A stretch of DNA of 64,000 nucleotides from Dysgonamonadaceae bacterium (GCA_041672395.1 JBAYZS010000003.1:6638-70637); one strand, 5' to 3'; counted from the first letter of the stretch, positions 34,824-52,899 are shown. Notes: generated by a model from the letters alone, not told the origin. Program-made: numbers and translations.

Positions 34824-36464
34824 TCACTCTCCTCCCACCTTAGACTTCTCCTCCAGAAACTGACCAAATTCAATATATCTCTTATACAACTCATCGTATA
34901 TTTGATTTCTCTCTTTATTCGGCTGATAATTTGCAAGTATCCCCTGACCTAGGCTTTCTTGTGCTAGCTCGATTGTTTCGAAAATGTTGGCAGCAACAGC
35001 AGCATACATTGCTGCACCCATTGCACCTGCTTGTTGCGTTGCAGCTACCTCAATAGGTACGTTCATAACATCAGAAAGTGTTTGCATTACATATGGCGAC
35101 TTCAATGAAATACCTCCCACACCAATTACTTTCAATATTTTAACACCCTGCATCTCAAGATGTTCCAGAATGGCCCTGGATCCAAAAGCGGTAGATTCCA
35201 CAAAACATTTGTAAAGTTGGGCAGGGGTAGTACCGAGGGTTAAATCCATAACGCCACCTTTTAATGTCTGATCGGCAAAAGGTGTTCTGCGCCCGTTCAA
35301 CCAGTCAACAGCTACCAAATCATTACGACTAACCGACAGCGCTGAAGCTTCTTTGTTCAAACGGGGTAAAATAGTGGATAGAATCTCGGATTTATTGTCG
35401 TCATCAGGGAGCCACCATGAAAGGATATCACGAAGCCACGCATACATATCGCCAAAAGCCGATTGTCCGGCTTCCAATCCTGTAAATCCCGGTATCACTG
35501 AACCATCCACCTGTCCACTGATTCCCGGAATAGTTTTTCCACCTATGTCCTCTTTAGAAGTAACCACGATATCACACGTAGATGTCCCAATGATTTTCAC
35601 CATTGTATTTGGCTTAATTCCAGCTCCCACGGCACCGGCATGAGCATCGATAATTCCTACCGAAACATCAATGCCTCTGGGTAATCCAAGTATTTCCGAC
35701 CACTCATTGGTAATTTTGCCTGCTGATTTGTCGCTTGTAAATGTCCGACTACTCAAATGGTCTGTAAAGCCTTCAAACAAAGGATCAAGTGCCGAGAGAA
35801 ATTCTTGTGACGGATAACCATTCCATTCTTCGGCCCACATACATTTGTGACCCGCGGCACATCTACTGCGTTTCACATGTTCCGGCTTCAGATTGCCGGT
35901 CAGTAATGCCGGCATCCAATCGCAATGCTCAATAATGGAATAAGCATCCTTTCTAAGTCGTTCATTTGCGCGAAGAGCGTGAAGCCCTTTAGACCAGAAC
36001 CATTCAGAAGAATAGATTCCACCCGACAATGAAGTAAAATCGGTCTCCCATTTATGCGATAAGTTGTTAATATCATCTGCTTCTTTTATCGATGTATGAT
36101 CTTTCCAAAGGATAAACATTGCATCAGGATCTTCTGCAAATTGTGGAAGTAATGCTAAGGGCGTACCATTTTTGTCTGTCAGACAAGGTGTACTGCCGGT
36201 TGTATCAATTCCAATGGTAGTAATTTTATTCACTTCTTCTGTAGATAACTTTGCCAGCACACCTTTTGTTACTTCAATCAAAGAATCGATATAGTCTTGA
36301 GGATGTTGACGATATCTGTTTTCGGAAGGATCGCAATACAGCTCTTTTTTCCATCTTGAATAGAAGGAGATAGCGCAGGCTAATTCATTTCCGGTAGATG
36401 TATCTACAACAATTGCCCTACACGAATCGGTACCGTAATCGAGTCCTATAACTAGCTTTCCCAT
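34824..36464 (-). CDS. araB: AraB-type ribulokinase (FGGY carbohydrate kinase family)
   Basis: The N-terminus VIGLDYGTDSCRAIVVD...FYSRWKKELYCDPSENRYRQHPQDYIDS parallels the E. coli AraB N-terminus as I recall it (IGLDFGSDSVRA..., WYPRWQKGQFCD...FRHHPRDYIES). The 546-aa length fits AraB rather than FucK. Confidence 0.85.
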   Translation of the reverse strand: MGKLVIGLDYGTDSCRAIVVDTSTGNELACAISFYSRWKKELYCDPSENRYRQHPQDYIDSLIEVTKGVLAKLSTEEVNKITTIGIDTTGSTPCLTDKNGTPLALLPQFAEDPDAMFILWKDHTSIKEADDINNLSHKWETDFTSLSGGIYSSEWFWSKGLHALRANERLRKDAYSIIEHCDWMPALLTGNLKPEHVKRSRCAAGHKCMWAEEWNGYPSQEFLSALDPLFEGFTDHLSSRTFTSDKSAGKITNEWSEILGLPRGIDVSVGIIDAHAGAVGAGIKPNTMVKIIGTSTCDIVVTSKEDIGGKTIPGISGQVDGSVIPGFTGLEAGQSAFGDMYAWLRDILSWWLPDDDNKSEILSTILPRLNKEASALSVSRNDLVAVDWLNGRRTPFADQTLKGGVMDLTLGTTPAQLYKCFVESTAFGSRAILEHLEMQGVKILKVIGVGGISLKSPYVMQTLSDVMNVPIEVAATQQAGAMGAAMYAAVAANIFETIELAQESLGQGILANYQPNKERNQIYDELYKRYIEFGQFLEEKSKVGGE

Positions 36465-36470
36465 AATTTG

Positions 36471-37925
36471 TTATTTATCTAATGACGATTGGATTTTCTT
36501 ATTCCTTGCGACGGTTAAACTGTAGTAAGTGATGAAAGCAAATGCGAGTGCGGGAACCCAATAAGCAAATTTTATGCTGCCCGACTGATCAGAAAGGATT
36601 CCCTGTAATTGAGTTAAAAGTGCAGCTCCAGCAATAGCCATAACCATTCCCGATCCTCCAATTTTTGTATCTTCACCTAATCCCTTCATGCCAATACCAT
36701 AAATTGTTGGAAACATGAGCGACATGCAGCCGGAAATACCTGTCAGTGCATACACACCAGCAAATCCATCGCTGTAAATAGCAGATAAAGAGCATATTAA
36801 TGCTAATATTGCAAAGGCAGAAAGCAGATTAACGGGCTTAATATACCTCATTAACCATGTGCATACAAAACGACCTATAACAAACAGAATCAGGGACAAA
36901 ATGTAATATGTAGCTCCCGCTTGCTCTGCAGTACGGGGAAGCAAAGCATCTATTCCCAACCATTCAACTAATGAATAAAAGCTGCCTGCAACTGGCTCTA
37001 CACCGCGCAAAGCAGTGATAATAACATCAGAAGATGGGTTAGCTCCCAATGAGGCTATGACATCGTCGAATTTTAATTCTTGCATTGCATATCTGATGAT
37101 AAATGACCAGACAGCAATTTGTGCTCCTACATAGAAAAACTGTGCCAACACACCCCAAACATAGTTTTTATTATTTGTTAATCTTTTGAATGTAGCTCTG
37201 AGTTTCAACGACTTATTGTCCTCATGTACTTTTGGCATCTTAGTGAATAATATCAGAAGCATAAGCACAAGCATCACGATTCCTAATATTAAATATGCTG
37301 TTGAAACGGCTTTTAACTCGTTGTTCTGAATGTTAACTAGATCTATATCAGTCAATAATGTTCTTTCGGAGGCGGTCTTTGTATTCAATTGAGATAGTAC
37401 GTATATCTGACTCACCATCACCCCTGTTAATGCGCCAAATGGATTGAACGACTGTGAAAAGTTAAGACGACGGGTAGCTGTTTCCGGATCGCCAAGTGCA
37501 TAAACATAAGCATTTGTTGCGGTTTCCAAAACCGATAATCCGGCAAAAAGAACAAATATTGCGAATAAATAACTTGCAAAACTTAAAGGTGAACTGATAT
37601 TATTAACAAGCATTGCCGGGTAAAATAATGAACATCCTATGATACAAAGGATTAGTCCCAGTAGAACACCCGATTTGAACGTGTGCTTTTTAATGAAAAT
37701 TGCACCCGGAAGAGCAAAGCAGCCATAACCTAAAAGATAACAGACTACCTGAATCCAGGCTGTTTGTGTATCGTTCATACTCATGATTCGCTTGAATGCT
37801 GCAAGCATTGTATCTGTCATGTTGTTTGGAACAGCCCAAATAAAGAAAAGAGAGGTAAGTAGAATAAACGGTAAAACAATTCCCTTTGGCACTAAACGAT
37901 GTTTTTCTAAATTTCTTGAATTCAT
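36471..37925 (-). CDS. fucP: FucP-family sugar:H+ symporter (MFS)
   Basis: LPFILLTSLFFIWAVPNNMTDTMLAAFKR matches the FucP N-terminal signature (FALLCSLFFLWAVANNLNDILLPQF). 12-TM profile. 484 aa. Confidence 0.85.
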   Translation of the reverse strand: MNSRNLEKHRLVPKGIVLPFILLTSLFFIWAVPNNMTDTMLAAFKRIMSMNDTQTAWIQVVCYLLGYGCFALPGAIFIKKHTFKSGVLLGLILCIIGCSLFYPAMLVNNISSPLSFASYLFAIFVLFAGLSVLETATNAYVYALGDPETATRRLNFSQSFNPFGALTGVMVSQIYVLSQLNTKTASERTLLTDIDLVNIQNNELKAVSTAYLILGIVMLVLMLLILFTKMPKVHEDNKSLKLRATFKRLTNNKNYVWGVLAQFFYVGAQIAVWSFIIRYAMQELKFDDVIASLGANPSSDVIITALRGVEPVAGSFYSLVEWLGIDALLPRTAEQAGATYYILSLILFVIGRFVCTWLMRYIKPVNLLSAFAILALICSLSAIYSDGFAGVYALTGISGCMSLMFPTIYGIGMKGLGEDTKIGGSGMVMAIAGAALLTQLQGILSDQSGSIKFAYWVPALAFAFITYYSLTVARNKKIQSSLDK

Positions 37926-38032
37926 ATAAGTTTGTTTAGAATATGTTATTGATAATAAGATGTATAATCCTGTTAAAGCGGAGCGGTTAGCGTTCCAATA
38001 TTTATTATGTTAATGGTTTTGGGTGAATCAAT

Positions 38033-39283
38033 TCAAAATATTGTTTTAACTTTTTCAAGGTTCACTCTCAGCAGTTTTTCTGCTATGATAGATAGCTCAG
38101 CTTCATTACCCACAAAATGAAATACATTATGCGTATGAGAAAGTGATTCACCTGGTTTCAGAAATGCTGCTGGTGAACAACTTTCTAATTCGAGGAAAGG
38201 TCCCATAATGCTTCCATCCTCCAGTGGACCATCGTTATAGGCATTGAGTGCATCTCCTATTAGTGGGTTCTTTTTTGGATTCCACTCCTGATTTAAATAC
38301 ACACTGTTGGGTTCTACATCAAAAATAATTATTGTCAATCTGTCAGCTATCGGGTCATAATTTCCAGCAATAGTTTTTGTGCGTTTGGGGTTCATTCCAA
38401 TTTTGCTTCGGTGTTTTCCATCGGTTTTAAGATAGAGTATATCATTCTCAACTTTCAAATAGTCAGATGGTATCTCTCCAAAATAATCTGTAGTAGCAAC
38501 TGTGCCCAACTCTGCATCGTCGCCGGAATTATAAGGAACAACAGTTATTGCAGAATCAGATGGATTGAACATATCGAGCATCCAAATGCAGATGGTACCG
38601 GTTTTATCTGTCCATTCAAAATCATTCTTATTGGTTATTTTGTTATCGGTAGCATAAGCAACAGAATTTACACCTTCAGGTAATTGAATCCCTAACTTTG
38701 ACGTTATTCCCTCTTTTGTGATTAGCGAAATCTTCCTGTCTACAAGCAAGTTAAGTGTTGTTCCCTGAGAGTTCTTAACCGTAATATCTTTGGTTAATAG
38801 CGTTTCTGATGATGTAGCACTCTCGATATTCCATTCTTCTGTATCTAATGCTTTTGGAGTGTGCCAATTATCATAAATTTGTTCTTTTCCGGGTTCAAAA
38901 TATACGGAATATTGTCCTCCTTCTGGACCCAACCAGAAACGATTTTCTCCACCGTAACCGTTCATGTGTTCATCAATCTGCCCGGAATCAAAGACTCTGT
39001 AATTCACAAACCCGAGACTGTTCCCATCCAGACCATTAGCTGTTGAGGTAAATACTTTTCCCTGGTATTTTGCCGACAGAATTACTTGTGCCTGATCATC
39101 AGTCGACTTTAATATAATCAAACTGTCTTTTTTAGATAGATAGTTTAGGTCGTACCCAAATGTTCCTTTTTCATATTCCTTTTCCATGTTTTCTGATGTT
39201 TTTTTGTTGCCTGTGCAAGAGAACAGTAATGTACCTCCTATCATCGCAGGCAGCAGTGTTCGATAGATTTGTTTAAGTTTCAT
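38033..39283 (-). CDS. Lipoprotein of unknown function
   Basis: Lipobox (GGTLLFSCTGN). 416 aa and beta-rich, with the motif GYGGENRFWLGPEGGQ. I do not recognise a family. Confidence 0.6.
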   Translation of the reverse strand: MKLKQIYRTLLPAMIGGTLLFSCTGNKKTSENMEKEYEKGTFGYDLNYLSKKDSLIILKSTDDQAQVILSAKYQGKVFTSTANGLDGNSLGFVNYRVFDSGQIDEHMNGYGGENRFWLGPEGGQYSVYFEPGKEQIYDNWHTPKALDTEEWNIESATSSETLLTKDITVKNSQGTTLNLLVDRKISLITKEGITSKLGIQLPEGVNSVAYATDNKITNKNDFEWTDKTGTICIWMLDMFNPSDSAITVVPYNSGDDAELGTVATTDYFGEIPSDYLKVENDILYLKTDGKHRSKIGMNPKRTKTIAGNYDPIADRLTIIIFDVEPNSVYLNQEWNPKKNPLIGDALNAYNDGPLEDGSIMGPFLELESCSPAAFLKPGESLSHTHNVFHFVGNEAELSIIAEKLLRVNLEKVKTIF

Positions 39284-39354
39284 ATTGATTTAATTATCGT
39301 GATTTTCTTGTTTTTTTTCTTGGTTGAAATTCAGATTGTAATTCCTATGTATTT

Positions 39355-41442
39355 TTATTCTATTGTTCCAAACTTGTCGAGAATGCGATTGTAGGCTTCT
39401 GCGGCTGCTCCGTTTCCCCAATCATAAATGGTAAACTCACCCATACCTTCACCTTCGGGACCGGTACGTCCGCCATGACCGTAATTCTCCATCGTAAACC
39501 CATAATCCTCAGGTCCAAAGAATGAATTCACTTTCTCCCATTGCTTTTTGGTTACAGGATTCAGTGGACTATACATCATTACGAATGAGGCTTTTAATGC
39601 TGCATTACCTCTTTCGGTATATTCTTGCATGTCAAGCAGTTTGCCGTATTGAAGGATGAGCTCAGCAAACAGACTCTGTCGTGCATCATTCCATTCTGCA
39701 TCTGCATTTAGTACTCCAAAACCACCCAGTACATTCACATACATATATGGCGGTTGCCATGATGCTTGGGTCATTAACAGTTCATCAAGTGTTCGCTGTC
39801 CCAGTTCCAGGTAGCGCTGTTGTTTTGTTATCCGATAGCATTCCAATAGAGCTTCAGCTGTCCAGAACATTGAAAAATTGTTTTGCTTGTACATGTTATT
39901 TCTCGTTACTTTTTCCCCAACAAGATTATCCGACCCGTAACGTGAACAAGACCAGTAGGTTTCAAAATCTTCCCATCGTCCTGTGGATATGTTTTCTCGG
40001 ATAACCGCATCCATGGATTTTAATGCAGCTTCTTTATATTCTTGTTTTCCGGTTAATTCATAAAGTTTGAGGAGAAAAGTCACTGACATAGAGCTTTCTG
40101 GTGAGTCATTCAAATGGTTCATCGGTTTTAAAGTGTGCAAATCGAGCCATCCTGGAAAGAAGCCATTGGGAAATTGTATCTCCAGTAAAGCTTTTGCATA
40201 ACTTTGTGCATACTGGAGCAGTCGTGCATCTTTCTCCAGTTCATCATACCAGCGCAGCATCAGTAAAGCTGTCCAACTCATGTCAAGTACATGAAAAGGT
40301 GACTCTTTGGGATTCCATGTGTATGGGTTTCGATTAGAATTTCCCCAATAATGGGTATTCCAACCTTTACTGCGATTATACTTTTGCCCATCTATCTCTA
40401 CATCATGCATTTCTGTACCAATTAGTCCATAAAAGAAACCATCGACTTGCGGGAATGAGAGTGCCAGCTCTTTTGTGAGCATCGCTTTTTCCATCAATTT
40501 CGCATTTCCTGTTCTTCGGGCATACCGAAACAGACCGCTGGCAGATCGTAATGAGCTGAACCATGCCTGGTTCCATATCGATCTGAATTCACGTTCATTG
40601 ACCTTGCCTGGGTAATTGGGACTCTGCGTGACATTCACTATAAATACCGGTGCACCCACTTTTTTCCCGTCCAGTTTAAACTCTTGCCAAACGTTATCGG
40701 ACCAAGTATTGAATGCCCAGTTATAGGTATGTTCCACATATTTTTCCAGATTTACATTAACGGGATTTCCCGTCTGATAGAGAGCGTGTCCCCAGCGTTG
40801 CCAAAGGAATTCAAGTGGTTTTCGAAATGGGTTTTGCACTATTTGTACATCAGTGTAATGCATCAGATAAAATCCTATCTCTACTTCACCCTGAAGATAT
40901 TCGGCCCCCTTTTCCCTCAGAAAGAGCACATGATCATCAACTCTGCTGTTGCTCATCCCCAATTTCAGTCGGTTATTCGGGGCATCAAGATCGAGGTACC
41001 ATCTTACGGGAGTTCCTTTTTTCATGATGTCCAAATCGGGTATCAGCGCCATCATCTGTTCATTGTCTGAGACAATCAACGCTGGGGAACGAAATACATG
41101 TTGGTCGATAATGTGGTCAGCAGTGGGAGTCAAATGTGGCGACCAGTGGAAGGAAGGTTTGAATCTGGGAGTTACAACCACTTGCCAGTCATTCTGTTGC
41201 AAAGATTTATCGAGTTTAAAACTAATCTTTACATGCAGACAATTGTCATTAATAACGGTGATTTTAGTTTTCCCTTTACTCTTTCCTAATTGGTCGTAAT
41301 GAATATTTTGCGTCACTTGATCCTTGGGAAAAGACGTTTTTATAACCTCCGTCTGCTTTTTGGGCAGCATCGGTTCCTGGGCAATCAGCAAGAAAACCGA
41401 TGCACATAATCCGAATAGGGTGGTACAAAAACGTCTTTTCAT
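39355..41442 (-). CDS. Secreted protein of unknown function with a beta-rich N-terminal half and a helical-repeat ((alpha/alpha)6-like) C-terminal half
   Basis: Signal peptide MKRRFCTTLFGLCASVFLLIAQEP, using the ATG at 41442 because the listed start at 41451 is a TTG. The C-terminal 350 aa contain regularly spaced aromatic-rich helix pairs (WTALLMLRWYDE.., YAKALLEIQFPNGFFPGW, VTFLLKLYELTG.., FWTAEALLECYRIT..). Confidence 0.6.
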   Translation of the reverse strand: MKRRFCTTLFGLCASVFLLIAQEPMLPKKQTEVIKTSFPKDQVTQNIHYDQLGKSKGKTKITVINDNCLHVKISFKLDKSLQQNDWQVVVTPRFKPSFHWSPHLTPTADHIIDQHVFRSPALIVSDNEQMMALIPDLDIMKKGTPVRWYLDLDAPNNRLKLGMSNSRVDDHVLFLREKGAEYLQGEVEIGFYLMHYTDVQIVQNPFRKPLEFLWQRWGHALYQTGNPVNVNLEKYVEHTYNWAFNTWSDNVWQEFKLDGKKVGAPVFIVNVTQSPNYPGKVNEREFRSIWNQAWFSSLRSASGLFRYARRTGNAKLMEKAMLTKELALSFPQVDGFFYGLIGTEMHDVEIDGQKYNRSKGWNTHYWGNSNRNPYTWNPKESPFHVLDMSWTALLMLRWYDELEKDARLLQYAQSYAKALLEIQFPNGFFPGWLDLHTLKPMNHLNDSPESSMSVTFLLKLYELTGKQEYKEAALKSMDAVIRENISTGRWEDFETYWSCSRYGSDNLVGEKVTRNNMYKQNNFSMFWTAEALLECYRITKQQRYLELGQRTLDELLMTQASWQPPYMYVNVLGGFGVLNADAEWNDARQSLFAELILQYGKLLDMQEYTERGNAALKASFVMMYSPLNPVTKKQWEKVNSFFGPEDYGFTMENYGHGGRTGPEGEGMGEFTIYDWGNGAAAEAYNRILDKFGTIE

Positions 41443-41451
41443 TATCCTCAA

Positions 41452-43395
41452 TTATTCTTCTATTCGTTCAAGTGTGATTAATGTGAGCTCAAACAAATTA
41501 GCTTTCCCTTTGTCTCTGACATGAACCGTAATTGAGTTTATTTGAGGAGTAAGTTGAATATCCCCAACATAAACATTCTCTCTGTAGCCATCTTTATCAG
41601 ACTTAGTGGAAATCCAATCCGACAGTTGATTTTGTCGTTGCCATATCTGAAAATCAGCACCCTTGGGACTCTCGTGATAATTAAGCAATACTTTATATTT
41701 GCCTTCAGGTACATCGGTTAGTTTTACTCTTACTGCTCCTTTTCCATAAGATGAGATAGCCAATCCTCTGTCCAGTATAACCTGAATGCCCCGTTCAAGG
41801 GTGATCTCCATTAACTGAGGGAAGAACACATGTTTGTTGGGTAGATATACTTCTCTCAATTCTTCAGTCGGTTCCATTCGGTTTTTGAGCGGTTGATCAG
41901 CATAAAAGAATGCTGTTGAAGCATAATCAACCGGAAAATTGTTCCCCACTTCTCCATGTTCCATAGCAAGATAAATCTCTTTTTCGAAAGAGAGTTTATC
42001 GGAAAGAAAGAAACGGTAAGCACCCGTCCGGTTCATCGGTAATGAGTAGTCTAGTGAGCCATGAAGCGGCATGCTAATTCCACTGTCCCAACGGTCCAAA
42101 AGTGCATACCAGCCACCATTATAATAATCCTCTGATCCGGTGCCATGCATCCGCATTTTACCATCTACATATGTAGAATCATCTCCTTCCCAAAATAAGG
42201 TCATACCCGGTCGCAGTCCCTGTGCATGATGAATAGTTCCAACATAATGGCCTTTGCCTTGAGTTTTCAGAAAGGTGAAGAATTGACCGACTTCTGGTTT
42301 TTCGCGTCTCCACAATGTGTAAAGTTTTCCTTCCTCTTTTTTATCACGTTTATTATCGTTGTAATATACTTTTGCCGTCACGGATACAGGGTTCTGTTGA
42401 ACACCTTCCCGCTTTTTATATATCAGCTTCATCTCTGCCGATTTGTCGTATGGCATCGGGAGATAACTGTAGTTGGTGGTTCCATGGCGTCCCATAATAA
42501 TGCTACGCATTGCCGGTTTTCCAAATGCATATCCGAAGAAATCAGCTACCGGTGCATAAATTGCTTCTACTGGTTCGTTATCCCATTTGGCTGACAAGAT
42601 GATGTCTTTGTAAAATCCTTCAAATGACGTACCACCATCGATATCAAAACCTGCGATGCGACCACCTTCAGACTTGTCAAAAAATGTAACCTCTTCACCT
42701 GGAAGGATGGTAAAAGTCTTTACTTCTGTTTGGAGTTGAGTCGACTTTCCAAAAGCGTATTGATTGACAGTAGGTGATATGTTGCCCCATAAAGTGTTCA
42801 CCTCTGACAATAATTGTTTGTCTGTTTCAGAAAAAACACCTGTCCAGCTTTCTACATTTAACCTCGGTAGTTTGCGGTATTGAATCTGATGAAACATGAT
42901 CTTTTCTCCTTGAAACACAATCTTAAGTGATTTCTTGAATGGGATTGGAATATAGCAGTAATATCCACCAATTTCGTTACCCACAACCGGTTTAACAAAC
43001 GGATACACCTTACCTGAAAAGAGATCAATAAACTTTATTTTCAAACGTGGTTCCTTTTCACCATCAAAATAGAAAGCAAGCGTATCTTCAGTTGGAGTGG
43101 GGGTCCAGATTCGGTTTACAACACCCGGACCTTCAAACTCTGCCAGAACCAAATTGTCTTTTTCTTTGCGGATGTATGAGTACTTACCCGAGAATCCATC
43201 ATCATTACCTCCAGTCCTGTCATAACTTGATTCCTGGTCAATCAACTGGTTATGTCGGTAACGGGGAAGTTGATCCACACTTTTTAATTGTTTTACCTCA
43301 TCACTCCAATGATAGGTATTATTTTGACTTTGTGCCTGAAAAACTCCTGCCAGAAACAGAATTGCAACTAAAATTTTTAATGAGACTCTTTTCAT
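41452..43395 (-). CDS. DUF2961 / GH172-family protein with a C-terminal extra domain
   Basis: Signal peptide present. DUF2961 blocks: SSYDRTGGNDDG, GPGVVNRIWTPTP, FYFDGE, GTGSEDYYNGGWY, YRFFLSDKLSFEKEI and EHG..GNNFPVDYASTAFFYAD. About 120 further residues (KLTDVPEGKYKVLLNYHESPKGADFQIW) follow the core. Confidence 0.85.
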   Translation of the reverse strand: MKRVSLKILVAILFLAGVFQAQSQNNTYHWSDEVKQLKSVDQLPRYRHNQLIDQESSYDRTGGNDDGFSGKYSYIRKEKDNLVLAEFEGPGVVNRIWTPTPTEDTLAFYFDGEKEPRLKIKFIDLFSGKVYPFVKPVVGNEIGGYYCYIPIPFKKSLKIVFQGEKIMFHQIQYRKLPRLNVESWTGVFSETDKQLLSEVNTLWGNISPTVNQYAFGKSTQLQTEVKTFTILPGEEVTFFDKSEGGRIAGFDIDGGTSFEGFYKDIILSAKWDNEPVEAIYAPVADFFGYAFGKPAMRSIIMGRHGTTNYSYLPMPYDKSAEMKLIYKKREGVQQNPVSVTAKVYYNDNKRDKKEEGKLYTLWRREKPEVGQFFTFLKTQGKGHYVGTIHHAQGLRPGMTLFWEGDDSTYVDGKMRMHGTGSEDYYNGGWYALLDRWDSGISMPLHGSLDYSLPMNRTGAYRFFLSDKLSFEKEIYLAMEHGEVGNNFPVDYASTAFFYADQPLKNRMEPTEELREVYLPNKHVFFPQLMEITLERGIQVILDRGLAISSYGKGAVRVKLTDVPEGKYKVLLNYHESPKGADFQIWQRQNQLSDWISTKSDKDGYRENVYVGDIQLTPQINSITVHVRDKGKANLFELTLITLERIEE

Positions 43396-43414
43396 TGTTA
43401 TTCTTTATATGATT

Positions 43415-44605
43415 TCATTCATTACCCCACAAATTAGGATCATTACCTTTTGATTTTCTCCATGCATCGCGCCATTTATGAATATCCATGTGATTAATAA
43501 ATGGTTTTAGTGCTCGTTGAGCTTTTGTCGGTGCAGGAGTAAGAGCTACTGCACTATCTTGATACCAGTAAGCTACTGAAGCCAGATCCAACGTTAAATT
43601 ATTGTTTGAACCATGCTCAATTGTTCCTTTTACCTCTGTTTCAAAGAATATGGGATCATTAATGAAGAAACGATAAACATGAGTACGACCAAGCCAGCCA
43701 ACATCGTTATTTACACGTGGATAGCCAAAATAGGGATGTGAAAATGGTTCCTTTGGACACCATGACGTGTTGAAAAAATCTTCGGTGCCTGTTCCAATTA
43801 AAGAAGGGGATTTTTCTCCATCAATAAACCACATATCATCTCCTTCTCCATACCACATTGGAGTAGGTGAATGCACATAGTAATTTATACCAATAAAATG
43901 TCCTTTTCCTTTTGTGTTGATGAAAACATAATTTTGTTCTCCCGTTTTGTTAGGATGTTGTGCTCCGGTAAGCCCCCATTCAGTCTCTCCTTCAGGAAGA
44001 GCATCTGTAAGATTATGGTTGTACCAGGCATGAAAACGTCCCATATCTTCAGGTAGCTTATCCATTTGTAAATAATCTACATAAAAATAGAATGCGTTGA
44101 TAGTCTTATCAGTCTGATTTTCAATTTCTATTCGGGCACCTTTAGCAAATGGCATTGCAAAATAACTTGTTAGACCTGTTCCGTTTTCAGGTCCGGCCGA
44201 AAGTGGAAAGGAGGCGTAGTTATATCGTTCATCCCATCCTTGTCCAAAGAAAGGTCCGATAGGTGATTCAACTGATGGATAATCGTTTCCATCCCAATAC
44301 ATTCTGATGATAATATCATTTCTGCTCAGTTCATCCGGAGGAGGGGCAATTGTAATCCAAATGTGATTGATTACTCCTGCTCCTTTAATCTCAGCGATAG
44401 TTCTTTTTTCTCCCGGCGCAAATGTTTCCAGATGATCTCTGTTTCCTCCCGTTGGATCAGTACTGGAAATTCGTTTATTTTTAATTCCTGTTTTTAGCTT
44501 TGCCAAATCTAACATTTCTCCGGTCATATTTTCTTGAGCAATCGCAGGAAAACTAAACAGTAAAACCAATAGGAGTGACAAACTTTTTTTTAATAAATTC
44601 TTCAT
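43415..44605 (-). CDS. DUF2961 / GH172-family protein
   Basis: Signal peptide MKNLLKKSLSLLLVLLFSFPAIAQ, using the ATG at 44605 because the listed start at 44650 is a TTG inside fucI. Blocks: STDPTGGNRD, GAGVINHIWITI, MYWDGNDYPSVESPIGPFFG, GTGTEDFFNTSW, YRFFINDPIFFE and EHGSNN...ASVAYWYQ. Confidence 0.9.
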   Translation of the reverse strand: MKNLLKKSLSLLLVLLFSFPAIAQENMTGEMLDLAKLKTGIKNKRISSTDPTGGNRDHLETFAPGEKRTIAEIKGAGVINHIWITIAPPPDELSRNDIIIRMYWDGNDYPSVESPIGPFFGQGWDERYNYASFPLSAGPENGTGLTSYFAMPFAKGARIEIENQTDKTINAFYFYVDYLQMDKLPEDMGRFHAWYNHNLTDALPEGETEWGLTGAQHPNKTGEQNYVFINTKGKGHFIGINYYVHSPTPMWYGEGDDMWFIDGEKSPSLIGTGTEDFFNTSWCPKEPFSHPYFGYPRVNNDVGWLGRTHVYRFFINDPIFFETEVKGTIEHGSNNNLTLDLASVAYWYQDSAVALTPAPTKAQRALKPFINHMDIHKWRDAWRKSKGNDPNLWGNE

Positions 44606-44619
44606 GATCTTAAGTATAT

Positions 44620-46395
44620 TTATTTGTATAATGGACCAAAAGTAGCACAAGCACGATAATCTGCTCCTTCGTTATCTGATCCGAATGAACTCCAAGTCGA
44701 CGGACGGAAAATTTTGTTTTCGTCTACATTATGCATGTTTACTGGGATTGAAAGGGTTGAACATAAGGTGATTAAGTCTGCTCCAATATGGCCATAACTG
44801 ATGGCGCCATGGTTCGCTCCCCAATAATTCATAACTGAATATACATCTGCAAAACGACCTTTTCCGGTTGTTCGTGGTATAAAGAAGGTCGATGGCCACG
44901 TTTTGTCGGTTCGTTTATCAATGATATCAAAAACGTCGTCAGGAAAGGTAGCGGTCCAACCTTCAGCAATCTGCATGACAGGACCTAAACCTTTTACTAG
45001 ATTGATACGGCACATTGTAACTGGCATTCCATGTCGGGTAATAAACTTGGAAGAATAACCGCCACCTCTCATATATTCAAGGTTTGAAGGATACCATGTC
45101 GTAGCATCTAACATTTTGTCAACTTCTTTTTTAGTTATTTCCCAAAATGGTTTCATAACTGGATTACCTTCACTGTCGGATTGTTGACCGCTTCCATCTA
45201 AAGTACATGAACCTGAATTAATTAAATGAATGGCTCCGTCTTTTAATAATCCGTCTGGTTTCCAGCCGCTTACTCTTTCTATTGCTGTTGGACTCCAATA
45301 GGTTCTTACGTCTGCAAACATTTGAGAAGTGTTTGTGAGTAGATGATTGAACAACATACTGATTCCATTCAAATGGTCGTCTTCTGTAGCGAATATAAAT
45401 GCTTCTCGTATTCCATTCCAGTCGAATGAGGAATTTAATATTGCTTCTGAAAAATCACCGTCTGGCAAAAAATCTGTCCATTGTCTTTGTCCCTGAAATC
45501 CACCCGCAATTGCATTATGTCCAAGTGCTTCTTCTCCCCAACCCATTTCGTCAAGTTTGGGATTACCAAACATTAGGTCTCTCATAATCAAGGTCATCTT
45601 AACAACAAACTCCCAGTCCTTGTCTTTTTGTTCTCTCGAGTGAATCAAATGGGGGGGATTATAGTCTTCTCCTTCACGACTCATGCAATTCTCTTTTGTC
45701 CATGTCATGGCTTTTTGAAATTCTTCTTTGTCATATATCTCAAGTTGTATGCGACGGAGTATCTCACTTGAATCAACAAATTCAGTTCGCATGCCAAGAT
45801 ATTCTTGAAGAAAATCGGGGTTGACCATCGAGCCGCCAATGCCCATAGAAACTGAACCAATCGCTAAATATGATTTTCCTTTCATCTGGGCTAAAGCTAA
45901 TCCGGCGCGGGCAAATCGAAGTAGTTTTTCTTTTACATCTTCTGGAATAGTGGGATCGCCTACATCCTGAACATCTCTGCCATATATTCCAAATGTTGGT
46001 AATCCCTTTTGATTATGGACTGCTAATGCAGCTGCCAAATAAACAGCTCCCGGACGTTCTGTTCCATTAAAACCCCAAATAGCTTTTGGAATATTTGGAT
46101 TCATGTCTATTGTTTCAGATCCATAACACCAGCATGAAGAAACTGAAAGTGAGAGCCCAACATTCTCTCTTTCAAATTTTTCGGCACACATTGATGCTTC
46201 TTTCACACCACCAATGCATGTATTTGCTATTACACATTGAACCGGACTTCCGTCGGGATACTTTAGCGTTTCCTTGTATAGTTTTTCTACTTTTTTGGCA
46301 AGATTCATAGTTGTTTCTTCCAATGATTCTCTGATACCTTTTCTTCGACCATCAATAACGGGACGAATTCCAATTTTTGGATAACTTGTTTTCAT
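44620..46395 (-). CDS. fucI: L-fucose isomerase (also a D-arabinose isomerase in characterised homologs)
   Basis: 591 aa, the same length class as E. coli FucI. The N-terminus [21 protein letters not shown] and the later blocks are collinear with FucI. Confidence 0.93.
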
Positions 46396-46453
46396 TTCTA
46401 TTTAGTATTTAAATGTAAATTGTTAAACTGAATCACTAATTTTTTTATAAAAC

Positions 46454-47452
46454 TTATTCACGAACTTCCAATTCTGCTTCAATAATGCAGTTCTTAATTT
46501 CGTAATTTTTCATCTCCATCTGGTCTGTAAGTAATTGCATTGCATTTTTTGCCATTTCTTCGATAGGCTGTTTAATAAAAGGAATATTTAATGGTAGAAT
46601 ATAAAAGGCATCACTCTCATCGAAGCACATTAACTGAATATCGCTTTGATATTGTTTTTGTTTGTATAATTCCTTGATGCCACTTATTGAAATAGAGTTT
46701 GTTGTAAAATAGATTGCGTCTATAGTTGGCTCGTTAGATAATAATTCATGAATGACTTTTTCCATATCACTATTCAAAAATTCATACCGGACCATTTTTA
46801 TGTTTTTTTCATTGTAAAAATTAGCATTTTTAGTTGCTTCAACATATCCTCTATTTCGTTCATTTATATGAAACTGAGTCTGTTTATAAGTGATAAGAGC
46901 AATATTTTTAAAGCCTTTTTCAATTAGTTTTGAAATAGCATAATACGAAATTTCGAAATTATTAATTAATACTGAACATACATTAATTTCTGGAAAGTTT
47001 CTGTCGACCAGCACCAACGGAATTTTTTCATTTGCCAAATATTGGATAGTTTTTTCACTACCGGCAGGAGGGGTAATAACAAAACCATCTACTTGTCTTG
47101 ATTTCAATAGATTAACCATCTTGTCCATCTCTGATGATTCCTCATTTGTGTTAGCAATGATTACAGCATAACCTTTTTTTTCGGCCTCATTTTGTATATA
47201 TAATGCAAGCTTACCAAAAAAAACATTTGAAATATCCGCAACAATTAAACCAATTGTTGCGGATTTACCTATCTTCAAACCCTTGGCAAAGGAATTAGGA
47301 GTGTAATGTAATTCTTCGGCCTTTTCAAGTATCTTTTTAGAGGTTTCTTCGCTAACCCTCCCTTTTATGTTTTTTCCATTCAATACAAGAGACACTGTAG
47401 CGATAGAAACTCCAATTTCATCGGCAATATATTTCAAGGATATTTTTTCCAT
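46454..47452 (-). CDS. LacI-family transcriptional regulator
   Basis: N-terminal helix-turn-helix LKYIADEIGVSIATVSLVLNGK..., the hinge YTPNSFAKGLK and a periplasmic-binding-protein-like sugar-sensor domain. 332 aa. Confidence 0.9.
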   Translation of the reverse strand: MEKISLKYIADEIGVSIATVSLVLNGKNIKGRVSEETSKKILEKAEELHYTPNSFAKGLKIGKSATIGLIVADISNVFFGKLALYIQNEAEKKGYAVIIANTNEESSEMDKMVNLLKSRQVDGFVITPPAGSEKTIQYLANEKIPLVLVDRNFPEINVCSVLINNFEISYYAISKLIEKGFKNIALITYKQTQFHINERNRGYVEATKNANFYNEKNIKMVRYEFLNSDMEKVIHELLSNEPTIDAIYFTTNSISISGIKELYKQKQYQSDIQLMCFDESDAFYILPLNIPFIKQPIEEMAKNAMQLLTDQMEMKNYEIKNCIIEAELEVRE

Positions 47453-47508: not shown

Positions 47509-48666
47509 TTAATTATTGCTAGCTATATCCACGCTCATCAAAAAAACGTTATATGGCTCCCATAAAGACATCAGAAAATAAAGTTTATCTTCATGTATCT
47601 TTAAAGGATGTATAAATGCACAATATAATCCGGGATATTCATTATCAGAAACCAATATTTTTGGTTTGCTCCACTCCGTAATATTATCTGCATCCCTATA
47701 TACTATAGCATGTTTCCTTTGAGGATTATTGGGGTCGCATGCATAATCATAATTATGGGTTAAAATCCATTTATTATATTTTTCGTGATATATTAGAGAC
47801 GCTTCACCAACGGGAGCCGGAATAATCGGAGTTGCTTCATTTTCATTGCCCTTAATCCATTGCTTAGATCTTCCGTTCCAATATTCATATTCGTTCATCT
47901 TCAATATATTATCCTCTTTAAAACGAGCAAGATAACCATCATCTCCTCTTCCTGAACATGTTCCAATCATATAAACAATGCCATCTTTCTTTGCATAAGT
48001 TACCTGTGAAAAATGACTTAAAGGATTAAAAGTTATTTCCTCTTTTCTTTGCCATGTTTTTCCATTATCTTAGGAGGCGTTAAGAGATGAAAAATTCGTA
48101 AGCCAAGAACAATCATGACCTGCCCAATCGTGAATATTCATATAATGAACATAATCAACTCCGTTTGCGCGAATTGCAGATGTAGGTATCGAAGTTTGAT
48201 ACTTTTCGGGATTTGTTTTACCTCCTGCAATAATTTCTCGTGCTTTTCCATCTAAATCTAATGCCATTCCAGAAATAGATAATCCATCTTCTAAGTTTGT
48301 GTCTTCTGAAAATGCCAAAACATTAGAACGCCAGTTAGAACCATTTCCACCTCCGCCATTTAGAAATGGTCGAAACCCCTCGCCATGGGTATCACCAAAG
48401 AATATTCCGATTTTATCTCCATCCATATGCCACATAATACCTAAATCAGTTCCTAAAACATCATAAGTCGCAGTATTATTAGGATTAGGAAAATTTTCAT
48501 CGGGCATCGAATTCCCGGTAACACGGGCAATTCGTTTGAGATTTGAAATATTAATAGATGGCTCTTTAATTATTTGTACTTTATCGGCATTACTATTATT
48601 TTTTTTTATCATCGTTTGAACATGCAATTAACAAAAGTGAGATTAAAAGAATGAATATATTTCCAT
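47509..48666 (-). pseudogene. DUF4185 / GH183-like (endo-D-arabinofuranase family) lipoprotein gene disrupted by an in-frame TAA and an out-of-frame signal peptide
   Basis: The ORFs 48070-48627 and 47509-47970 are in the same frame and are separated only by TAA at 48070-48072. The 99 nt between them translate without a stop (DNGKTWQRKEEITFNPLSHFSQVTYAKKDGIVY-MIGTC...). DUF4185-like blocks are present: GTDLGIMWHMDGDKIGIFFGDTHG, S*DNGKTW and VGEASLIYHEKYNKWIL. A lipoprotein signal peptide (IFILLISLLLIACSNDDKKK) lies in a different frame upstream of an A9 run at 48599-48607. Confidence 0.78.
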
Positions 48667-48668
48667 AT

Positions 48669-50027
48669 TTATTGCAATTGAATTGTATATAATAATTCTC
48701 CTGTTTCTCCGACCATATTTCCTTGAGAGGGCATGAAACTAGTCACAATAAATCGATTTTGATCTATTTGAGCAATGCCCGGATTTGCAAAAGAAGTAGA
48801 GCCTAAATTTGTATTTGGATTTAATTGATAATAAAATAATCCATTTCCAAATAAAATACGCCAGCTACTCCAATCATGTTGTATATATTGAGCCTCAATA
48901 AGTATATAATCACCATCTCTTCTGAAACTAGTTCTTGCACCTATATTGCCTTTAAAACCCATATTTTGGATATTATTATTTGAAATTATATCTTTCCAAG
49001 CTTTCCATTCGCTGAAATTCTGAATAATTCCAAATGCTTGTTGGTCATGTATAATGTTTTCATAATAATGGAACCCTAATAAAATATAAGAATTAGAAGG
49101 AGTATTACCTTCTATTTTCCTGATATCAGGTGTCCCTTCTGCTGTTGGAGCAAACGTACGAGTTATAGATTTATCATAAGATGGATTATTAATAATTAAG
49201 TCATCATATGAATTATAAAATCTTAATTGAACATTATTTGAACCTTGTATTACATCCTGTTCGTTAGCAACTAGATATCCATTTCCCCATTTTTCAATAT
49301 CACCTTGATGAGCCCTGTCTCCTAATTCTGTTATGTAAGTCCAACTTTTCAAGTCGTTACTTCCTGAAAGATACAATTTAAATCTACCATCATTGACCAT
49401 TGAATGAGAGACACCCAGATATGTGAATTTTTCATCAGCTTTCACTATTCGCAAAACATCCATTGTGATATTTCTATTATCCTTTAAACCAAAAATAGGA
49501 TTACTGTTTTTGATTGAATTTAATTTATTGATTAAATTATTAGTCTGAGGATTCTTTCTAAACCACCATTCATAAGCAATGTTCAGATTTACTGCAATAG
49601 CTTTAGATTCTAATTCATTTTGAGTTCTACCTGTATTGACAGTATTTAAATCAACAATTAAGCTATAATAATCTTTCAATGTCATTAAAGAGAGTTCATT
49701 CGTTTTGTATCCATAATCCAAAAGGAATTTATATGACATTGAAGCTAAACATAAATCATTGTCGCTCATTGATTTTAATTCAACTGATGGCGAAGCACTT
49801 ATTTTTTCTAAATTAGAAATCAAAGAGTTTCGTTTCTCATTATATGAAGTGGTCATTATAAATGAAAGTGGAGACCAATCCATATAAAGAAGAGTTTTGA
49901 CTAAGATATCTTCATTTTTAATTATAGGTTTTGTTTGAGAATTATTCTCGATATTCTCTTTTGAACAACCCGGAATTGCTATTAATAAGGATAATAGTAA
50001 GAGTGTATATTTTATAAGTTTTACCAT
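48669..50027 (-). CDS. Lipoprotein of unknown function (helical N-domain plus beta-rich C-domain with an Asp-box-like motif)
   Basis: Lipobox (LLIAIPGCSKEN). 452 aa. It has an SGSNDLKSWT Asp-box-like motif. Its start overlaps the stop of the upstream gene (ATGGTAA), and its stop lies 2 nt before the DUF4185 ATG. Confidence 0.6.
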   Translation of the reverse strand: MVKLIKYTLLLLSLLIAIPGCSKENIENNSQTKPIIKNEDILVKTLLYMDWSPLSFIMTTSYNEKRNSLISNLEKISASPSVELKSMSDNDLCLASMSYKFLLDYGYKTNELSLMTLKDYYSLIVDLNTVNTGRTQNELESKAIAVNLNIAYEWWFRKNPQTNNLINKLNSIKNSNPIFGLKDNRNITMDVLRIVKADEKFTYLGVSHSMVNDGRFKLYLSGSNDLKSWTYITELGDRAHQGDIEKWGNGYLVANEQDVIQGSNNVQLRFYNSYDDLIINNPSYDKSITRTFAPTAEGTPDIRKIEGNTPSNSYILLGFHYYENIIHDQQAFGIIQNFSEWKAWKDIISNNNIQNMGFKGNIGARTSFRRDGDYILIEAQYIQHDWSSWRILFGNGLFYYQLNPNTNLGSTSFANPGIAQIDQNRFIVTSFMPSQGNMVGETGELLYTIQLQ

Positions 50028-52201: not shown

Positions 52202-52304
52202 TTCGCTGTCTATGAATTTAAAGACAAGAGCATGTTATTTATACTTGACCAAGTAAACATTCTCCTGTCATAATAAATATGAATTAAGGAATATCAACTA
52301 TTAT

Positions 52305-52329
52305 GGCTTAATTATAATTATGCCTTTTT
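52305..52329 (+). promoter_or_regulatory. Near-perfect 20-nt AT-rich palindrome GGCTTAATTATAATTATGCC followed by T5
   Basis: Read directly. It lies in a 698-bp non-coding region between the divergent 726-aa gene and clpB. No upstream plus-strand gene exists for it to terminate. Confidence 0.3.
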
Positions 52330-52899
52330 ATATCTTCAGTAGCATTATTTATTCTTGCAGCAGCTCGAATAAACACAGTCCTTTTAGATGGTATTACTCC
52401 ATTTGGTCAGTTTCTGACTTTAAGCTGAATTAATGTTTTTAATCATTAAAGTTTATCAAGTTTTTCATTACCTCCACTAAATTGGAAAATTACCATTTAT
52501 TTCATTTATTCAAAGAATAATAGTTGTAATGAAAGTTCCTGTCTTTCTGGTTATGTTTATGGAAACTCTTTTTTACTTATTGATTCTTTAGATAACATTA
52601 AATATTTAATACAAATATACTAAGTTAAACGATTAATCAAAAATTATTTTATATGTTATAAAACATATTTTATGTAATATTTGTAATTTATAATGATTCT
52701 ATTTTAGATGCTTTTTTCGTGGCTTTTCCTGTTAATGATGGTCTCACTGTCCTATAAATATGTTTCGTACTGACAAAACGTCATAATTCATCCTTTTGGC
52801 AAAGATTTTGATCTTTATATTCAGAAAACGAAGTAATTACGAAACAAAAACAGTATTGCTTTGTTCAAAATAAGTTAATAATGAAAGGAGATATTTTAT

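Follow-up and report, generated by a model that had tools for sequence, protein, structure and literature searches.

The window, i.e. the whole stretch of 64,000 nucleotides analysed here, comes from an uncultured Dysgonamonadaceae (Bacteroidota) species of landfill-type metagenomes. Its minus strand carries a locus with the gene order unk726, unk452, GH183 pseudogene, LacI, FucI-type isomerase, GH172a, GH172b, unk698, DUF6786, MFS and ribulokinase, followed by a gene for an ISL3 transposase (Table 1). Both of the exo-acting GH172 genes are intact according to Pfam and NCBIfam, in agreement with an earlier note on this DNA, and both GH172 proteins have signal peptides. Interpretation of 44620-46395 and 43415-44650 as a split SusC gene proved wrong, as these frames are the intact genes of the FucI-type isomerase and a GH172 enzyme.

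The isomerase is an L-fucose-isomerase equivalog and has a ribulokinase-type FGGY kinase as its partner; neither an aldolase nor an epimerase gene was found in the locus. Isomerase and kinase fit a predicted conversion of D-arabinose via D-ribulose to D-ribulose-5-phosphate and not the catabolism of fucose or L-arabinose. The putative functions encoded in the locus as a whole fit harvesting of D-arabinofuranosides with subsequent isomerisation and phosphorylation of D-arabinose. Possibly, the transposase gene at the distal edge has to do with rearrangements of the region. A scan for sigma-70 promoters and terminators gave results at chance level, the model used being ill-suited to a Bacteroidota genome.

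Table 1. Features at and around the interrupted gene. Positions are counted from the first nucleotide of the window; G and L numbers denote genomes and loci used for comparison.
Feature	Position	Strand	Evidence or remark
ISL3-family transposase gene, 575 aa	32856-34583	-	240 nt downstream of the ribulokinase gene, distal locus edge
Intact back end: LacI, FucI-type isomerase, two GH172, unk698, DUF6786, MFS, ribulokinase	34824..47452	-	Pfam/NCBIfam
Ribulokinase-type FGGY kinase gene	34824-36464	-	
unk698, large secreted protein, 698 aa	39355-41451	-	dN/dS 0.11; G001, G007, G010, L023
L-fucose-isomerase equivalog gene	44620-46395	-	1053 bits
GH183/DUF4185 endo-D-arabinofuranase pseudogene, ATG to terminal TAA	47509..48666	-	Pfam PF13810, 8hhv, Foldseek
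Open C-terminal propeller half	47509..48069	-	called 153-aa ORF begins at ATG 47970
TAA nonsense codon, x of S-x-D-x-G-x-T-W	48070..48072	-	residue 186 of about 372
Predicted catalytic Asp codons	48391..48447	-	D61 48447-48445 (GTDLG); D79 48393-48391 (FFGDT)
Lipoprotein signal peptide	48596..48664	-	GNIFILLISLLLIAC, then SNDDKKK and stop; lipobox Cys 48622-48620
A9 homopolymer	48599..48607	-	leader and mature frames offset by one nucleotide; leader-frame TAA immediately after
Polymorphic 5' segment	48645..48664	-	DNA alignment and translation of two haplotypes
ATG start	48664..48666	-	mature-domain frame, closes after 7 codons (MEIYSFF, stop)
unk452, intact 452-aa lipoprotein, unnamed family	48669..50027	-	directly upstream of the GH183 gene
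unk726, large secreted protein, 726 aa	50021-52201	-	dN/dS 0.12; G001, L023
Spacer between unk726 and clpB, 698 bp	52202-52899		
DUF3823 relic, last 39 codons, in-frame TAA	52287..52403	-	tblastn with L023 DUF3823: 79%, E=1e-15

Family membership of the interrupted gene

The two ORFs called in this region, 48070-48627 and 47509-47970, share one frame as had been described before, and the 99 nt following the stop of the upstream ORF (48069 to 47971) are indeed open. The upstream piece matched PF13810 at profile positions 3-132 with 121.5 bits and the downstream piece at positions 134-308 of 309 with 145 bits, the family cut-off being 39.5 bits. The two halves are contiguous on the profile; hence the stop replaces a single profile position within one gene, and an origin of the halves from different families, considered in the earlier note, is ruled out. 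In a whole-genome search the read-through frame scored 284 bits against DUF4185 with '1 TAA inside', and the 2.5-Mb genome has no other DUF4185 copy.

The read-through translation matched PDB entry 8hhv, a solved endo-alpha-D-arabinanase (EndoMA1), with E=4e-43. An AF2 model of the read-through protein (pLDDT 85.4) showed a predicted 5-bladed beta-propeller whose top Foldseek matches were 8ic1/8hhv (E=8e-32, TMq 0.80, rmsd 2.5 A), M. tuberculosis AraH2 (8an0) coming next. Entries 8HHV and 8IC1 both represent EndoMA1 of Microbacterium arabinogalactanolyticum (Shimokawa et al. 2023, PMC10509167). The modelled protein thus resembles EndoMA1 in its 5-bladed catalytic propeller, with 30% identity. 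EndoMA1, however, has an additional CBM-like beta-sandwich and is active and secreted, whereas in the window the gene is cut short at residue 186 and lacks any usable leader.

Residues D61 and D79, spaced by 18 residues, align onto Asp33 and Asp51 of 8hhv, and both lie upstream of the stop within the N-terminal fragment. In EndoMA1, Asp33 is the nucleophile and Asp51 the acid/base (PMC10509167); in DgGH4185b these catalytic roles fall to D170 and D188, which are also 18 residues apart (PMC10115798). By analogy, D61 would be the nucleophile and D79 the acid/base. PF13810, 8hhv, the Asp pair and Foldseek all agree with the initial classification as a DUF4185/GH183-like gene. A functional GH183 enzyme, which cuts D-arabinan of the mycobacterial type internally, requires an intact ORF combined with an export signal, a combination which this gene lacks. 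By descent, fold and predicted catalytic residues the sequence is therefore classified as a member of GH183, yet as a pseudogene.

An in-frame TAA codon interrupts the Asp-box

Across the junction, the minus-strand frame reads ...DCSWLTNFSSLNAS-TAA-DNGKTWQRKEEITF... (in short, ...LTNFSSLNAS-TAA-DNGKTWQRKEE...); the stop codon lies at 48072..48070. That it falls on the variable position x of an Asp-box was confirmed with alignments of 16 and 120 homologs: S185, D187, G189 and W192 are invariant, residue 191 is T or S, and the stop column is filled by Y (31), E (17), S (16), A (11), K (9), T (8) and others. The protein contains one S-x-D-x-G-x-x-W motif. Asp-boxes normally sit in inter-strand hairpins, and in the AF2 read-through model the stop is located in the one that connects strands 176-184 and 193-200. 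Family-wide conservation and, as far as the model goes, position in a blade beta-hairpin are both those of an Asp-box. The predicted propeller is interrupted about halfway, in the middle of a blade. At the orthologous position, where a comparison had been proposed, intact relatives have sense codons: TAC (Y) in the closest whole-genome relative, and TCT (S) and CAG (Q) in the two closest metagenomic ones. Every inspected contig carrying the interrupted gene has TAA.

The 5' end carries further lesions and is polymorphic

The earlier note, while correct about the TAA in the Asp-box, missed that the 5' end of the gene is broken as well. Its view that a single point mutation had cut the gene in two does not hold, as each of the two haplotypes found has at least three disabling lesions (leader, A9 offset, TAA). 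Three-frame translation placed the lipoprotein leader in a frame that differs from both the ATG frame and the mature-domain frame. Most homologs open with a leader that is similar in type and equally long, e.g. MELFKHIHILLLPIIFYFVSC in L023, the closest intact locus (Logan SRR21517856, 71% amino acid identity). Owing to the leader and frame lesions, an exported enzyme is impossible even without the TAA in the Asp-box.

Haplotype B (SRR11970084, SRR11970121; L015/L016/L029) contains an extra 16-nt tandem copy after 48664 which brings the ATG into the leader frame, and a T>A exchange at 48645 which turns the leader Leu codon TTA into TAA (MEIYSFRNIFIL, stop, ISLLLIAC...). These are the only differences between haplotype B and the window over about 3.7 kb. 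In the haplotype of the window, the private lesion is the difference in frame between leader and ATG. In favour of the longer 5' form as the ancestral one, its leader comprises 21 residues from M to C and equals that of L023 in length; against this, the perfect 15-nt repeat in it has the appearance of a recent duplication. Both haplotypes share the TAA and the A9 offset, which are thus the older lesions, and each has gained a further private one, in keeping with a sequence that selection no longer maintains. No start-to-stop frame joins leader, catalytic residues and a complete propeller.

Recurrence of the lesions in independent assemblies

Whether the lesions are artefacts was checked on independent assemblies from JGI, ENA and Logan, which represent three pipelines. 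The exact 180-aa product was encoded on 16 contigs and the exact 153-aa product on 15; as some of the 16 contigs may be related samples of one study, the truly independent number is below 16, with two haplotypes and one slightly diverged JGI strain being distinct at minimum. The following carriers were inspected: JGI 3300014203, a landfill metagenome (PMC9723747), ENA ERZ27247361, and Logan SRR11970084, SRR11970121 and SRR6485349. The TAA was present in all inspected carrier contigs (L013-L016, L026-L029), and A9 in 8 of the 8 loci retrieved. Between the JGI strain and the window there were 5 SNPs in 6.5 kb, all outside the pseudogene.

A search of 5.8 billion protein clusters yielded 497 homologs. 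There was no intact conspecific allele among the 120 of them that were listed; all 120 are full-length, the best of the matches listed being 73% identical. Since Logan and other contigs drop rare variants, minor intact alleles may exist in populations. A pattern scan of metagenome and genome contigs with NNN at the stop gave no matches, but does not bear on intact alleles, since near-identical records are withheld and a known carrier contig was likewise not returned. No related loci were found in genome contigs with the read-through protein. In sum, the gene displays what defines a pseudogene: its lesions recur in independent assemblies and are missing from homologs, and the interrupting codon is one that this genome uses as a stop.

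Selection and age of the inactivation

Across 119 homologs, no variation occurs in 35 alignment columns, and 90 columns reach a conservation of at least 95%. The gene in the window deviates at none of the former and at one of the latter, the family having a median of 1 deviation (range 0-7) at the columns of at least 95% conservation, although such absence of missense decay is equally expected of a still-functional gene. From this, the period of neutral evolution would be bounded roughly at about 0.02-0.04 substitutions per site. The locus genes differ from those of a same-genus genome (G001) by dS values of 0.3-0.9, which places the inactivation much later than the species split. All nine locus genes shared with G001 have dN/dS values of 0.03-0.12, indicative of purifying selection. 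The recent pseudogenisation envisaged in the earlier note is supported by the low column deviations and by the recurrence of the lesions across samples.

Alternative explanations

The earlier note also allowed for a strain-specific or sequencing variant, i.e. for a TAA and/or A9 offset that are sequencing or assembly errors or private variants of a gene which is really intact. The genome is a 126-contig draft and homopolymer runs are error-prone on some platforms, but identical TAA and A9 lesions on 15-16 contigs, of which those inspected come from 5 samples and three independent pipelines, together with a second 5' haplotype, led us to reject this explanation; in addition, a substitution to TAA is untypical of assembly errors, and all neighbouring genes are intact. 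Hardly more can be said for the idea that A9 is a phase-variation switch and the gene a contingency locus in its OFF state. The homopolymer is positioned exactly at the junction of leader and mature domain, but it has the same length in all retrieved loci, homologs have no such run, and neither the TAA nonsense codon nor the leader lesions could be reversed by slippage. With 72 A/T runs of length 9 in the genome, the presence of one here is unremarkable. Both explanations are considered extremely improbable.

Rescue by recoding would demand that slippage or frameshifting at A9, combined with read-through or reassignment of the stop, yields some full-length enzyme. Bacterial RNA polymerase is known to slip on runs of at least nine A, e.g. 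in the poly(A) tracts of endosymbionts, and the mature-domain frame is free of missense decay. Against this, TAA is the main stop of the genome (it ends 819 of 1128 long frames, 73%, and also closes the upstream gene and the pseudogene itself), and no stop-reading anticodon was found among its 43 tRNAs; stop-codon usage and tRNA set thus led to rejection of recoding. A slippery site and a stop conserved in orthologs, which would characterise programmed frameshifting or read-through, were not found: in orthologs the leader is in frame, with no offset at an A run, and the stop column is occupied by sense codons (Y, S, Q, K, E and others). Moreover, three independent events per molecule would be needed because the leader either has no usable start (window) or contains a TAA (other haplotype). 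We regard such rescue as very unlikely, and assign a similarly small probability to a functional truncated or two-piece product, be it an active 180-aa N-terminal fragment or reassembly of the N- and C-terminal pieces. Such a product could be invoked since D61 and D79 both precede the stop and since both pieces are called as ORFs with undecayed sequence. Neither piece, however, has a signal peptide, although the substrate is an extracellular polymer and the homologs are lipoproteins or secreted; the 5-bladed propeller is predicted to be cut mid-blade, and the 33 residues between the stop and the next ATG, which include the Asp-box strand, would be missing. Finally, the sister species deleted the gene outright.

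With high probability, the gene is thus a true pseudogene, non-functional and inactivated only recently, of a GH183 retaining endo-alpha-D-arabinofuranase that was originally surface-bound or secreted.

Loss of the front end of the locus

The spacer between unk726 and clpB contains the remainder of a DUF3823 gene, which marks a deletion of SusC-SusD-DUF3823 upstream of the locus. A palindrome or terminator-like feature of the spacer lies inside this relic, and the spacer is not simply non-coding DNA. Orthologous SusC and SusD were not found in the genome, where the best matches (37% and 29%) belong to another PUL, and the adjacent SusC/SusD pair of a canonical Bacteroidota PUL is missing at the locus. 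In the sister species G001, the syntenic locus has about 22 bp in place of unk452 and DUF4185. A deletion is suggested by about 9 nt of this remnant, which are similar to the beginning of unk452. G001 shares the junction on the clpB side; the DUF3823 relic is missing there. Among the 16 GH172-bearing genomes searched (that of the window and 15 relatives), 10 lack GH183, a count that is only indicative because GH172 also has activities unrelated to arabinan. It appears from these comparisons that SusC/SusD/DUF3823 were lost before the species split and that GH183 was then lost twice, apparently by recent pseudogenisation in the organism of the window and by deletion in G001, and that the exo-acting and catabolic back end was kept under selection throughout.

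The closest intact locus, L023, has the order unk727-unk450-GH183-GH172b-unk702-DUF6786-MFS-kinase, which matches that in the window, with genes at 61-79% amino acid identity. Unlike the window, L023 keeps SusC-SusD-DUF3823 upstream as well as an intact GH183 of 391 aa whose lipobox leader is in frame, and it is devoid of the LacI-FucI-GH172a insert. Characterised GH183 endo-D-arabinofuranases of the same bacterial family are DgGH4185a/b (HMPREF9455_02480/02481) encoded in PUL42 of Dysgonomonas gadei (Al-Jourani et al. 2023, PMC10115798). They share with the gene studied here the Pfam and CAZy family and the spacing of the catalytic Asp pair, and PUL42 likewise includes GH172 exo-D-arabinofuranosidases and a fucose-isomerase-type gene. 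The copy in the window differs from them in being a pseudogene with at least three lesions and a single gene instead of a tandem pair, at a locus that has lost SusC/SusD.

Proposed consequences for D-arabinan utilization

The changes at this locus amount to ordinary gene decay, in the setting of a PUL whose front end is being lost, and pseudogenisation of PUL enzymes is already known. Two lesions, the TAA in the Asp-box amid the propeller and the one-nucleotide offset at A9, were present in every sampled copy. Shared and private lesions together leave no translatable leader, and the longest possible products would be unsecreted half-propellers. The 180-aa fragment would contain both predicted catalytic Asp residues and only about half of the fold. 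We infer that active endo-arabinanase is not made and that the organism itself no longer cleaves polymeric D-arabinan. It would instead consume D-arabino-oligosaccharides or D-arabinose released by other organisms, by way of secreted GH172 exo-enzymes, import by the MFS transporter, and conversion by FucI-type isomerase and ribulokinase into the pentose phosphate pathway. Such scavenging of oligosaccharides, first suggested in the earlier note, is plausible from gene content alone, and the loss of SusC/SusD/DUF3823 lends it additional support.

Among gut Bacteroides, keystone organisms reportedly differ from recipients in having a surface endo-glycanase (Cartmell and co-workers, 2018). The organism studied here resembles the recipients in that the surface endo-enzyme is missing while exo-acting and catabolic genes are kept, which predicts that it depends on oligosaccharides set free by others. 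That system differs in that it concerns plant arabinogalactan and has intact SusC/D, whereas here the polymer would be D-arabinan, SusC/D are lost, and the recipient-like phenotype is a prediction.

More tentatively, and with a probability we put below even, the locus may document how a 'selfish' D-arabinan PUL of the SusC/D type was converted in stages into a SusC/D-free operon that is controlled by LacI and serves scavenging only. Under staged conversion, selection would have maintained the surface endo-GH183 during most of the period after the loss of SusC-SusD-DUF3823. This would imply a role independent of SusC/D, e.g. release of oligosaccharides as a public good. GH183 would then have been lost twice, independently and recently, leaving a pseudogene here and a clean deletion in the sister species, and unk452 could act on D-arabinan and partly substitute for GH183.

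For annotation, the two ORFs should be joined into a single entry marked as a GH183 pseudogene, and CAZyme-based predictions of metabolism should not count the organism among the D-arabinan depolymerisers. With neither the endo-enzyme nor SusC/D, it represents a natural genotype for studying how anaerobic waste communities share the D-arabinan of Mycobacteriales cell walls. The erosion of the front end in stages and the conserved proteins that lack annotation merit further pursuit.

Conserved neighbours of unnamed families

Searches of Pfam, NCBIfam and PDB sequences with unk452, unk726 and unk698 revealed nothing significant. These three conserved, unannotated secreted proteins are candidates for new enzyme families. 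The family of unk452 comprises 161 'hypothetical' Bacteroidota homologs, none of which has a Pfam domain; many of its Asp and Glu residues are invariant. A member of the family adjoins GH183 in the intact relatives L023 and L025, and in G001 unk452 was deleted together with GH183. An AF2 model of unk452 (pLDDT 91.5) consisted of an N-terminal helical domain and a 5-bladed beta-propeller which matched GH43, GH130, GH93 and GH62 in Foldseek with probability 1.0. Judging from this model, unk452 could itself be a glycosidase and a candidate new family in D-arabinan loci. The description of the interrupted gene as the only recognisable endo-acting enzyme of the locus stands at the level of sequence, but not in view of the predicted glycoside-hydrolase-type propeller in unk452. 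Likewise, unk726 and unk698, which are conserved in D-arabinan-type loci and under purifying selection, are candidates for unknown enzyme families. The dS of unk726 versus G001 was 0.29 and thus clearly below that of the other locus genes (0.50-0.93), which could reflect either recombination between species or strong codon constraint.

A greatly expanded D-arabinan locus was observed in another genome of the same family (G007:C62:79-131 kb; L003, L008, L009, L011, L012, L019, L020). With seven DUF4185 and seven GH172 matches, most of them on one contig, it contrasts with the eroded locus in the window.
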